From Candidatus Borrarchaeum weybense (GTDB lineage: Archaea > Asgardarchaeota > Sifarchaeia > Borrarchaeales > Borrarchaeaceae): a stretch of 64,000 nt of DNA. Below, one piece after another: positions 48,485 to 52,728 of the stretch. The first letter of the stretch is position 1. The number at the start of each line of letters is the position of its first letter. The notes beneath the pieces were generated by a model. It saw only the letters and a list, made by a program, of their open reading frames with translations. It was not told the origin of the DNA and ran no database searches. The translations under genes were made by a program, and so were the position numbers. Location of the stretch: contig JAHQJS010000006.1 in assembly GCA_019057385.1 (NCBI GenBank), forward strand, positions 320,001 to 384,000, given 5' to 3'.

Positions 48485-48671
48485 ATGTGACAAGTATCTT
48501 ACCACGCATTACAAGTGTATGGGGATATATGTGTACATCAGTTTCTCCACTTTTTTTAAAAATTTAAATTATGGAGTCACGCTGACATTATCAAAGAAGA
48601 ATTGAATGAAAAACAACCGAACATTAGGTCATAGTAGTTTGGAGGTGTTCACGAAGTAGGAGGCTCGTTAA

Positions 48672-51600
48672 ATGAATGCATTGGAAAATAAAACGGCAGA
48701 AAATATCTTGGTGATTGGCGGCGGAATGGCTGGAATGTATGCCTCGCTAGACATTGCAAATCAAGGCTATACGGCTTTTCTAGTAGAGAAACGAGAAACG
48801 ATTGGAGGAAGATTTTCGCAGGTTTACAAAATCTTTCCGACTGATGAGTGCTCAGCTTGACCACTTACGCCCCTTATGTCAAGTGTTGCCAGAAACGACA
48901 ATGTTCGCTTGTTTACTCTTACCGAAGTCTTAGAGGTAAATGGCGAACCAGGGAATTTTACGGTAAAACTTAAGCAAAATCCTAGATATATCGATCCAGA
49001 CAAATGCACAGGATGTCAAAAATGCATGGAAGAATGCCCTGTTGAAGTGACTTCAGAATATGATATGAATCTTGGTGTCCGAAAAGCAATCTACCTTCCT
49101 TTTCCACAAGCAGTACCTCAGATTCCTCGCTTAGATAAAGAGAACTGCATTGACTGTGGCATGTGTGAGCTGGTATGCCCTGCTGACGCAGTGAATCATG
49201 AAGATTTTGAAAAAATCTTCGAAATCGAAGTTGGTTCGATAATCGTAGCAACGGGTTTTGATGAGTTTAATCCTGAACCATTAAAACAATTTGGATATGG
49301 ATACTACGAAAATGTTGTTACATCACTTCAATTCGAGCGAATGATGCATCCTACAGGTCCAACTCAGGGCAAGATAGTGAGACCTTCTGATGGAAAAGAA
49401 CCACGCAGAGTATTATGGGTTCAATGTGTGGGCTCTAGGAGTGAAAAAGAAGTCGGCAATAAATTCTGTAACCGGGTCTGCTGTATGTTTGCATTAAAAC
49501 AAGCTAGAGCCTATAAACTGCAATCAAAAGGAAAAGGACAGGCAGACCTTTGCTATATAGATATAAGATCCTCAGGAAAACTGTACGAGGAATACTACAG
49601 GGACACACGAAATAATTATATGCCTAATTTAATTCGCGGTAAAGTGGCGGAAATTCAAGAAAACGAAGAAACAAAAGACTTAATCATCTGGGTTGAAGAC
49701 ACTAATACTGGAGAGGTTTCTCAGATCAAAGATGTTGATCTTGTTGTCTTATCTAGCTCATTTGTTCCATCCGAAGGGACAAACGAACTATGCCAAACAT
49801 TAAGCGTTGAAATTAGCGATGATGGATTTCCCTTGGAAGTCAACAGTTATCATCCAATCGAAACAACTCGACCTGGAATCTTTATGGCGGGTGTGGCAAC
49901 AGGCTCAAAAGATGCTGTGGATACAGTTACTCAAGCAAGAGCTGCGGCATCGTCTGCAGTGAACCTTTTATCTGGTTCCCCACCATATATCAAATCATAT
50001 GCATCTAAAACGGAATTAGAAGGTTCTGGCGAGATTCGACTTGGCGTTTTTGTATGTCACTGCGGTGGCAATATCGCAAATTACATCGATATAACAGAAG
50101 TCATGGAATATGCGAAGACATTACCTGGCGTGATCTACGTAGATAATAATGAGTTCTTCTGTAGTGAGCCAGGGCAACAGCAAATCAGCGAGAAAATAAA
50201 GGAACTCAATATTAATCGAGTTTTAGTGGCGGCATGTTCTCCTTTACTCCATGAGGACACATTTAGGACTCTTTTAGAGTCTGCTGGAATAAGTAAGTAC
50301 TATCTTGAATATGTGAACATAAGAGACCAAGCAGCGCAAGTTCATATGCAGACACCAAAAGAAGCCACCGAAAAAGCAAAGGATTTGATCAGGGCTGGCA
50401 TTGCACGAGCACTACATCTTGAGATTGTGCCATATCGGATGGTATCAGTTGTCAACGAGGCTCTTGTTATTGGTGGTGGAATTGCTGGAATGTCAGCTAC
50501 CCTTGATTTATCTAATCAAGGATTCAATGTTCACCTCGTAGAGAAAGAATTGCAACTGGGTGGTCGTCTCAATTCTCTTTACAGAGTATTTCCAGAAAAA
50601 ACTGAAGCTAGCCAAATTGTGGATGAATTAACTGCACAGATAACTAATGCTCCCAATATCTCGGTTTACCTTGAGTCTTCGTTGGAATCCCTTGATGGTC
50701 ACATCGGTGATTTTACAGCTAAAATTAGGAGAAATAATGGAGCAAATACCGATATTAACGTTGGAGCTATTATCGTGGCTGTCGGAACAAATACATATAC
50801 TCCCAAAGATGGCGAATACGGTTACAATACTGTTCCACGTGTTGTAACTTCTCTTGAATTCGAGGAACTGCTCAAAACTCGTAATTTTGATCAAGATCCA
50901 AAGCGCATTGTCTTTATTCAATGCGTTGGGTCACGAGAAGAAGACGGAAACAAATACTGCTCCCGTGTGTGTTGCGGCGTATCACTGAAAAATGCGCAGA
51001 ACGTTAGAGAACTCTTTCCGAACTGTCAAACCTTTGTCCTTTTTAAAGAGGACCTACGACCTGTTGGAAGGTATATGGAAGAGTTTTATCTAACTACAAG
51101 AAAGCAATATCGTACCAATTTTATGCGATGGACAGAAGAAAGACCCCCAATGGTTACGGAAGCCCAAAATGGTAATGCTCTGGTGCAAATATACGATACC
51201 CTTTTACGAACTACATTCGAGATAGACGCCGATTATGTAGTGCTAGCGGTAGGACAAGAACCTCCTGAAGGCTTTGATGAACTGTGTAAGATAATAGGGG
51301 TTACTCGCTCTTCTGATGGTTTTCTTGAGCCTATCCACATAAAATTCAAACCTGTTGAAACACGAAAAGATGGTGTGTACGTAGCAGGGACCATTCTATC
51401 TCCACGAAGCATAAGCGACTCAATAGTGCTAGGTAAAGCCGCAGCGTCGGCAGCAAGTGTGCTTTTACAACAGAAAGAGATTCAACTTGAACTAATCAAG
51501 GCTGTATGTGACGAGAATCTTTGTAGCGGATGTAAGGTGTGCGTAATAGCCTGTCCATATGATGCTATAACTACTAAAGAAACTGAAGCAGGAGAACTCG

Positions 51601-52157
51601 TTTCGGTTACTGATGAAATTGAATGCAAGGGCTGCGGATCCTGTATTGTAGCATGTCCCTCTGGCGCTAGAGAACTTCGATACTGGCGGGATGAGCAATT
51701 CTATCCACAAATTGAATCGCTTTTAGCTGAAAGCAAGCAAAAATCATTACTTCTTGTTTTTGCTTGTGAAAAATGTGGATATGGTGCTGCTGACTTAGCT
51801 GGACTTTCAAAACTTCAATATGACTATCGTACTCGAATTATACGCGTGCCATGTACTGGTCGTGTTGACACACCGTGGTTACTTAAAGCATTTTCACTCG
51901 GCGCAGATGGCGTCGCAGTAGTCGGATGACACAAAGGCGACTGTGCATATATTGACGGCAACCTACAAGCAGAAAAATCCGTTGGATTGGCTGAGAAACT
52001 CCTTGAAACCATGGGCTTTGGTGAAGGCAGAACTGTAATGTACTTCCTTTCATCTGCGGAAGCAGAAAAATTCAGAGAAGCAATGCAAACTTTTGGCGAA
52101 AGTATTTCGAAACTTGGACCCAATCCGTCGCGCATAGCTCAAACTAGAACGGAATGA
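48672..52157 (+). CDS. hdrA: Selenoprotein HdrA (tandem HdrA modules) fused to MvhD, 1161 aa, Sec at TGA 48858-48860 and 51927-51929
   Basis: Track ORFs 48672..48860 and 48876..51929 share a frame. Both TGAs sit at conserved Cys positions (FPTDECSA-U-PLTP; GVAVVG-U-HKGDC), and translation continues with MvhD C-terminal motifs (YIDGN, SSAEAEKF, KLGPNP) to TGA 52155-52157. Confidence 0.9.
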
Positions 52158-52198
52158 TCTCTCTCGGGAAACCCTTTCGGGACTGAGAGAAGGACTGG
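52144..52198 (+). promoter_or_regulatory. Eukaryote-like (type II) SECIS element
   Basis: AUGA at 52154-52157, ~10-bp helix UCUCUCUCGG/CUGAGAGAAG with one mismatch, apical GAAA, mini-stem CCC-UUUC-GGG, closing GA at 52193-52194. Confidence 0.85.
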
Positions 52199-52275
52199 CT
52201 CCCTACGCAGGGATGCTTCTTATATATAACTTTCATAAGAATATCCTTCAATAAGACAATTAGGAGGACTTATCA

Positions 52276-52728
52276 ATGGGTAAACTTGAAGATTATGAAC
52301 TTCCAGATGACCTATATTATACAACTGAACATTCTTGGGCAAAAGTAGAAGGAGATTCTGTCGTGGTCGGCGTAACCGATTTTGCGCAGGCTATGGCTGA
52401 AAAGATTCAGGCTGTGCAATTACCTTTTGAAGGCGAGTCAGTAGAGTTCATGAAACCTTTTGGAACACTAGAAAGCGGCAAGTGGACAGGCAAGATTTAT
52501 GCCCCAGTCTCAGGTGAAGTTACTGCGTTCAATGAAGGATTGTGGGATGATGCCTCACTTGTCAACAATGATCCCTACGGCGAAGGTTGGATGGTCAAAA
52601 TTACTCCATCCAATTTGGATGAAGATCTTTCAAAACTTATGAAGGGTGGCACGGACGAATTTGTTCAATGGCAACTTGCCGAAATTGAGCGTGTAAAGAA
52701 GGAAGTAGAGGAATCAAAGAAGGAATAG
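52276..52728 (+). CDS. GcvH-like lipoyl-carrier protein (LbpA-like)
   Basis: YTTEHSW, GVTDFAQ, lipoyl-Lys motif LESGKWTG, APVSGEV and NNDPYGEGW. Confidence 0.88.
   Translation: MGKLEDYELPDDLYYTTEHSWAKVEGDSVVVGVTDFAQAMAEKIQAVQLPFEGESVEFMKPFGTLESGKWTGKIYAPVSGEVTAFNEGLWDDASLVNNDPYGEGWMVKITPSNLDEDLSKLMKGGTDEFVQWQLAEIERVKKEVEESKKE

Follow-up and report, generated by a model that had tools for sequence, protein, structure and literature searches.

HdrA and VhuD/MvhD proteins that contain selenocysteine (Sec) and share a single eukaryote-like Sec insertion sequence (SECIS) element have been described in Lokiarchaeota (PMC4989117), in Sifarchaeia and Jordarchaeia (PMC9723677) and across the Asgard archaea (PMC11227280), so that this selenoprotein type is already known from Asgard archaea, including the clade considered here. 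The subject of this analysis is a predicted member of the type in which HdrA and MvhD are fused in one open reading frame (ORF) with two in-frame UGA codons. The gene is located in a stretch of 64,000 nucleotides from Candidatus Borrarchaeum weybense (contig JAHQJS010000006.1, positions 320,001 to 384,000), which is termed the window. Current understanding is not overturned by a fused gene with two Sec residues. Its novelty is modest and consists of the tandem fusion in a single ORF, the 3.3-kb distance from UGA to SECIS and the placement of Sec at the cross-module Cys197 position.

The published Asgard SECIS elements have an AUGA_GA core, a 9-bp stem and an A-rich loop, and they overlap with UGA stops (PMC4989117, PMC11227280). 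The apical loop reads G[U/G]AAA for hdrA/frhD in Sifarchaeia/Borrarchaeales (PMC11227280), and SBP2 has been reported absent from Asgard archaea (PMC9723677). Tandem or fused HdrA proteins are known from anaerobic methanotrophic archaea (ANME) and Moorella thermoacetica, where one module carries the N-terminal domain (N-domain) without Cys197 and the other carries Cys197 without the N-domain (PMC9012536). Cys197 serves there as a ligand to the N-domain cluster of the partner HdrA, and the fusion thereby acts as its own heterodimer (PMC9012536). In the cryo-electron microscopy structure of Methanococcus maripaludis HdrA, Sec197 is positioned between the N-domain cluster A3 and the flavin adenine dinucleotide (FAD), possibly forming a Cys-Sec relay (PMC13518236).

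The Borrarchaeum gene shares its protein families and canonical Sec positions with the HdrA-VhuD pairs of Lokiarchaeota and other Asgard archaea (PMC4989117, PMC11227280). The single SECIS after the VhuD part is likewise of the same kind (AUGA...GA, 9-10 bp helix, A-rich apical loop, possible overlap with the UGA stop). In contrast to these pairs, HdrA and MvhD form one ORF, so that no polycistronic sharing of the SECIS is needed, and HdrA itself is present as two complementary modules in tandem. This complementary loss is common to the fused HdrA of ANME and Moorella and implies an intramolecular pseudo-heterodimer. The module order, however, is reversed, with the Cys197-bearing module that lacks the N-domain coming first; the Cys197 equivalent is Sec, and MvhD is fused to the chain as well.

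Two in-frame UGA codons in a single frame

The gene is, with high confidence, a genuine selenoprotein gene that is translated as a single chain of 1161 residues with two Sec. The features of the reading frame are the following.

48672..52157 (+): complete coding sequence of the predicted 1161-residue HdrA(deltaN)-HdrA-MvhD selenoprotein, with the terminal stop TGA at 52155-52157
48659..48663 (+): Shine-Dalgarno-like GGAGG, 8 nt upstream of the ATG at 48672
48858..48860 (+): UGA 1, putative Sec63 in FPTDECSAU, equivalent to Cys197/Sec197 of HdrA
51927..51929 (+): UGA 2, putative Sec1086 in VVGUHKGDC, the second canonical Sec position of VhuD

When TGA is read through, positions 48672-52157 translate into 1161 codons that contain no other stop. 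The in-frame TGAs fall on codon 63, on codon 1086 and on the terminal codon. Translation table 11 splits this frame into ORFs of 62 aa (48672-48860), 1017 aa (48876-51929) and 56 aa (51987-52157), and the protein database entry for the contig consists of the 1017-aa piece only (P0002). The public protein therefore lacks the FAD-binding N-terminus and half of MvhD, and relatives in at least three other genomes are affected likewise. The first-pass annotation, drawn up from the sequence alone, had proposed one open frame across both UGAs, a single fused polypeptide and a gene that is broken up by gene callers. The translation and the database fragment bear this out, as does the homology to solved HdrA and MvhD/VhuD, which spans both TGAs. 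The start at 48672 is favored over the start at 48876 chosen by the gene caller, because the GGAGG precedes it. TGA terminates 29% of the ORFs of at least 300 aa in the genome and is thus a normal stop elsewhere, for which reason a genome-wide reassignment of TGA was rejected.

Both codons occupy canonical Sec positions. As the first-pass annotation had proposed, the TGA at 48858 replaces the second cysteine of the HdrA motif FPTxxCxxC and the TGA at 51927 replaces the first cysteine of GCxxGDC (here GUHKGDC). U63 aligns with the X (Sec) of FPTDDCAMX in chain 9sfi_A, and U1086 aligns with the second X (VAGX) of chain 9sfi_K. The MvhD part harbors only one Sec because the first VhuD Sec position is a cysteine here. 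In a MAFFT alignment with 119 database homologs, column 63 is cysteine in all 117 sequences that have a residue there, and column 1086 is cysteine in all 23 that have the MvhD domain. Alignment with cysteine-containing homologs had been proposed as a check on the two sites, and it finds both TGA columns invariantly cysteine. Full-length cysteine forms of 1147-1165 aa, which cover 98-99% of the query, occur in Heimdall-, Hermod- and Promethearchaeota and in Thermoplasmata.

The orthologue search took in 40 relatives, and the records named among these include Candidatus Borrarchaeum yapensis (locus at JAEOSF010000001.1, 62040-71522), a Borrarchaeota metagenome-assembled genome and a Promethearchaeota metagenome-assembled genome. 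Orthologues were found in three congeneric genomes with identities of 91% (G004), 71% (G001) and 70% (G002). Both TGA codons are homologous and kept in all four genes. Chance does not account for this, because both TGAs stand on columns that are otherwise all cysteine and three further genomes retain TGA at both sites. An additional protein from ENA (P0003, 69% identity) begins just after the first TGA and stops just before the second.

The ratio of nonsynonymous to synonymous substitution rates (dN/dS) was estimated by NG86 for the codon segments 1-62, 64-1085 and 1087-1161. The second and third segments give values of about 0.06 to 0.15 with all orthologues. The first segment gives 0.11 with G004; in the comparisons with G001 and G002 its synonymous rate is saturated, with proportions of differing nonsynonymous and synonymous sites (pN and pS) of 0.12-0.14 and about 0.8, respectively. 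Synonymous sites are also near saturation overall in the pairs with 70% identity (pS about 0.7). Both TGAs are kept despite this saturation, and therefore the TGAs themselves are under selection and their flanks are coding.

Two other explanations can be weighed against these data. If the UGAs simply terminated translation, three separate products would result: a peptide of 62 aa, a protein of 1017 aa that restarts at Met69, and a short fragment from the C-terminus. These are exactly the ORFs given by table 11 and include the fragment found in the public databases. Termination at the UGAs is very improbable, since the 62-aa N-terminus harbors the FAD-binding GxGxxG and most of FPTDECSAU and evolves under constraint, and a product that starts at Met69 would lack the Rossmann motif. 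Furthermore, the last 75 codons supply the remainder of the MvhD fold and evolve under purifying selection, the TGAs are retained at both sites, and a good Shine-Dalgarno sequence precedes 48672. A pseudogene, or an assembly or sequencing error at two positions, could be suspected in a metagenome-assembled bin with an estimated contamination of 7%. Its probability is nevertheless negligible: four independent assemblies share both TGAs, a fifth database sequence is truncated at the same codons, purifying selection is strong throughout, and the SECIS and the operon are conserved.

Domain architecture of the fused protein

The chain takes on the layout HdrA(deltaN)-HdrA-MvhD, which corresponds to a fused pseudo-heterodimer of HdrA plus MvhD, as is illustrated by Pfam matches and by alignment to solved structures. 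The first-pass annotation had read the protein as HdrA joined to MvhD. This reading stands for both families, but it overlooked that HdrA is represented twice, by complementary modules in tandem.

48672..50021 (+): HdrA module 1 (about residues 1-450), FAD/thioredoxin-reductase fold with an inserted 2x[4Fe-4S] ferredoxin domain
50022..51737 (+): HdrA module 2, with the N-domain, without FPTxxCxxC and without the inserted ferredoxin domain
51747..52133 (+): MvhD/VhuD domain (residues 1026-1154), PF02662, aligned with 9sfi_K, 7bkb_F and 5odc_D across the second TGA

Module 1 is devoid of the N-terminal domain and of the C-terminal ferredoxin domain and keeps FPTxxCxxC with Sec63. Its residues 25-352 align with HdrA 159-484, which comprise the thioredoxin-reductase fold and the inserted ferredoxin domain. 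Module 2 has the cysteines of the N-domain, and VFPEKTEASQ replaces the FPTxxCxxC motif. Within it, residues 455-626 align with HdrA 4-175, which cover the N-terminal Fe-S domain and the first part of the FAD fold, and residues 838-1022 align with the C-terminal ferredoxin domain at HdrA 471-654. The elements of HdrA are thus spread over the two modules, each being present exactly once, with the exception of the FAD fold, which is present twice. In agreement with this layout, Pfam detects two Rossmann/FAD regions (residues 11-50 and 597-635) and four Fer4 stretches, two of which are part of the inserted ferredoxin domain (106-125 and 153-173) and two of which are C-terminal (about 949-999). 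The FlpD/MvhD family PF02662 matches residues 1028-1149 with 146.5 bits over 122 of its 123 positions. The MvhD domain has the conserved cysteine set, in which the first cysteine of GCxxGDC is Sec.

Similarity to the solved M. maripaludis chains amounts to 40-50% over the domains, and U63 and U1086 align with their Sec positions residue for residue. The methanogen system differs in having separate subunits, an HdrA homodimer, an archaeal-type SECIS, a hydrogenase partner and CoM-S-S-CoB as the substrate. A fusion of HdrA and MvhD is also found in the HdrA2 of Methanosarcina, whose NCBIfam model NF040770 scores 1128.6 bits with the fused protein (cut-off 1100) and matches three separate stretches of it. 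Methanosarcina HdrA2, however, consists of a single HdrA module, is about 780 aa long and has only cysteine.

The protein would accordingly take the form of a self-contained asymmetric HdrA dimer joined to MvhD, with Sec63 in module 1 and Sec1086 in MvhD. By analogy with solved Hdr structures, Sec63 may reach the [4Fe-4S] cluster in the N-domain of module 2 and act either as a ligand or as part of a Cys-Sec relay between cluster and FAD. Sec would thereby be placed at the cross-subunit Cys197 position of a fused HdrA, a position whose function in the methanogen enzyme is under debate. Sec1086 stands at a conserved cysteine position and is taken here to ligate the [2Fe-2S] cluster of MvhD.

A split paralogue is encoded elsewhere on the same contig (C6:951810-955313, minus strand). 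In this locus HdrA(deltaN), HdrA with the N-domain and MvhD take the form of three adjacent in-frame genes that are separated by single stop codons (TAG and TAA). TAG is the first of these separators, and the genome also harbors pyrrolysine (Pyl) machinery.

The predicted SECIS element and the selenocysteine machinery

A eukaryote-like SECIS of the Asgard type, recognized by its fold and its conservation in the four orthologues, is predicted at the end of the frame and overlaps the terminal stop codon.

52154..52194 (+): predicted eukaryote-like (Asgard) SECIS

The element is composed of AUGA (52154-57), a helix of 10 positions (52158-67 with 52183-92) and a 3′ GA (52193-94). The fold permits the tandem G.A pairs of a kink-turn core. 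Eight of the helix positions form Watson-Crick or G-U pairs; one U-G and one C-A make up the remainder, and the C-A mismatch is U-A in two orthologues. The apical region (52168-82) consists of GAAA followed by a mini-stem, CCC-UUUC-GGG. The terminal UGA codon sits inside the AUGA. In G001 the ORF is closed earlier, by a TAA that precedes the conserved GGAAUGA core by 5 nt, and the element is nevertheless retained, so that the SECIS is conserved as an RNA and not as a stop codon.

A scan of both strands for the motif by regular expression and pairing yielded 34 such motifs in the genome, just one of which lies in or near the gene. The first-pass annotation had assigned both UGAs to a single SECIS at about 3.3 kb and 0.23 kb. 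Only the element at the stop was found, and the measured distances to its AUGA at 52154 are 3296 nt for UGA 1 and 227 nt for UGA 2. In the proposed mechanism, the UGAs at codons 63 and 1086 would be decoded as Sec by Sec-tRNA(Sec) and EFSec, with this one SECIS immediately 3′ of the ORF as the signal. The third UGA, inside the AUGA core, would terminate translation; it presumably escapes recoding because it is too close to the SECIS core. With three in-frame UGAs and two fates, the gene offers a natural test case for the minimal-distance rule.

A rival reading is that the SECIS serves only the nearby UGA 2. UGA 1 would then be recoded inefficiently, or by a different signal, for instance a protein factor or a structure close to the codon. 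In favor of this, the published archaeal spans reach about 2 kb (Lokiarchaeota, PMC4989117), against the 3.3 kb required here, and synonymous conservation is raised in two internal windows (alignment columns 616 and 661-666). The evidence around UGA 1 makes such a separate signal unlikely, however. No SECIS-like motif is present elsewhere in the gene, and neither conserved structure nor synonymous constraint was detected after UGA 1: folds near it are weak, at -5 to -11 kcal/mol, and show no conservation, and synonymous conservation in the following 45 codons is below average (2/9 and 0/4 identical codons compared to 43% overall). A local bacterial-type SECIS after UGA 1 was considered and is unsupported. 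In addition, the distant HdrA UGAs of Lokiarchaeota and of the split HdrA/VhuD pair of this genome (L056) likewise have only a VhuD-proximal SECIS.

On balance, it is probable that one SECIS drives Sec insertion at a UGA 3.3 kb upstream in a single 3.5-kb ORF, which would be the longest distance found described for archaea, that Sec bridges the fused HdrA halves, and that the gene was apparently missed by the published selenoproteome survey of this or a near-identical genome. None of four motifs diagnostic of the fused protein occurs in the 87 supplementary files searched, among them the HdrA and FrhD sequence files of the 2024 survey, Table S3 aside (PMC11227280). The HdrA file of that survey includes an entry, Sifarchaeia_GCA_019057385_U, that is identical to the canonical HdrA on contig C4 of this genome over the stretch shown, except for the first residue. 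The reach of the Asgard SECIS would be extended to 3.3 kb, which fits a largely distance-independent action as in eukaryotes.

Two other selenoprotein genes of the genome carry the same SECIS architecture on their UGA stop. The first locus (C4:638542-641123, minus strand; L056:242-2824) encodes a classical pair of a 659-aa HdrA and VhuD with three Sec in total, namely in CAUG (N-domain) and FPTDDCSIU of HdrA and in ACDKUGY of VhuD, and one SECIS overlaps the UGA stop of VhuD. The second (C6:507480-508157, minus strand; L058:101-778) encodes a selenoprotein with a double thioredoxin fold and a GDUPFC motif, whose UGA stop carries a SECIS with a perfect 10-bp helix. It resembles the “AhpF N-terminal domain homologue” selenoprotein that has been reported only in Sifarchaeia/Borrarchaeales.

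A second hairpin (GGCUCCCUACGCAGGGAUGCU, 52197-52217, plus strand) directly follows the SECIS of the fused gene and precedes a U/A-rich run. It is kept in all four orthologues, lies about 60 nt from the start of the gcvH-like gene and may serve as a terminator or attenuator, or else form a lower helix of the SECIS. The only Rfam match in the region, an influenza pseudoknot, was dismissed as chance.

The first-pass annotation had made its reading depend on Sec machinery in the genome, and this machinery is encoded. SepSecS (490 bits) is located on the same contig as the fused gene. EFSec scores 286 bits, above the cut-off, and is immediately preceded by a PSTK-like gene. SelD (250 bits) has one in-frame TGA and is thus itself Sec-containing. 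The tRNA-Sec gene (C6:465039-464917, minus strand; L057:218-340) is situated on the contig of the fused gene, about 81 kb downstream of the window. It was located by a profile built from the tRNA-Sec genes of five relatives (match at C6:465039-464959, minus strand, E = 2e-7). Its product would have an acceptor stem of 9 bp, the anticodon loop CUUCAAA and a long variable arm, and the T-loop is interrupted by an intron of about 31 nt, which in Lokiarchaeota has about the same length and the same position. The gene is 91-100% conserved in G004, G001 and G002. When the intron is removed in silico, ARAGORN calls tRNA-SeC(tca); the unspliced gene gives a partial Rfam match of 23.6 bits. Standard scans miss the gene because of this intron: an Rfam RF01852 scan of the genome returned ordinary tRNAs only, and no tRNA-Sec was detected by ARAGORN in the genome with and without introns, by a strict structural scan or by an Rfam scan of 38 kb around EFSec.

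Several observations weigh against a selenoprotein decoded from this one SECIS. No Rfam model matches the SECIS, and its assignment is based on motif and fold analysis together with the published descriptions. The four SECIS copies are near-identical, with the one change from C-A to U-A as an improvement, and are too similar for covariation statistics. RNAalifold on a MAFFT alignment of six SECIS was uninformative, as the two paralogous elements were misaligned. The distance between UGA 1 and the SECIS exceeds the Lokiarchaeota span given above. The PSTK-like match (186 bits) is under the curated cut-off of 290 bits. The bin has an estimated contamination of 7%, but the fused gene, SepSecS and tRNA-Sec share one 965-kb contig. 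Finally, the frame, the homology, the retention of the UGAs, the SECIS motif and the Sec machinery are documented here, whereas Sec insertion itself, the service of one SECIS to both UGAs, the functions of the Sec residues and the substrates are deduced from them.

Two further observations concern the tRNA genes and the genetic code of the genome. A tight cluster of intron-less tRNA genes on the 179-kb contig C1 (e.g., C1:19435-19896) has a slightly higher GC content (0.39) and looks bacterial; it may explain part of the 7% contamination estimate. On contig C7, the C-terminal domain of PylS (C7:142596-143312, minus strand, L059; 281 bits, above the cut-off) adjoins a tRNA-Pyl(CUA) gene (C7:143743-143811, minus strand). 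With Sec and Pyl machinery side by side, the organism apparently encodes the 21st as well as the 22nd amino acid.

Operon context

The fused gene is embedded in an operon with the order GlcD-like FAD oxidase, HdrD-like CCG protein, fused gene, GcvH-like protein, HdrC, HdrB and kynureninase-like enzyme. The same order is present at the locus of a 70% orthologue (L052). The fused protein and the co-transcribed HdrC and HdrB most likely form a flavin-based electron-bifurcating or confurcating module. The gene neighborhood suggests that this module is coupled to a GlcD-like 2-hydroxyacid dehydrogenase with its HdrD-like partner and to a GcvH-like lipoyl carrier, and not to CoM-S-S-CoB. Such a module would be connected with the oxidation of 2-hydroxyacids and possibly with a lipoyl disulfide carried by a protein.

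The GcvH-like protein is encoded between the fused hdrA-mvhD and hdrC (52276-52728, plus strand), carries an ESGK lipoyl-lysine motif and is kept in the orthologous loci. It may indicate that Hdr acts here on the disulfide of a lipoyl protein, similar to the bacterial sHdr/LbpA systems. The genome harbors eight genes of the GcvH family, namely the one in the window and seven at other loci (L063 and L065-L070).

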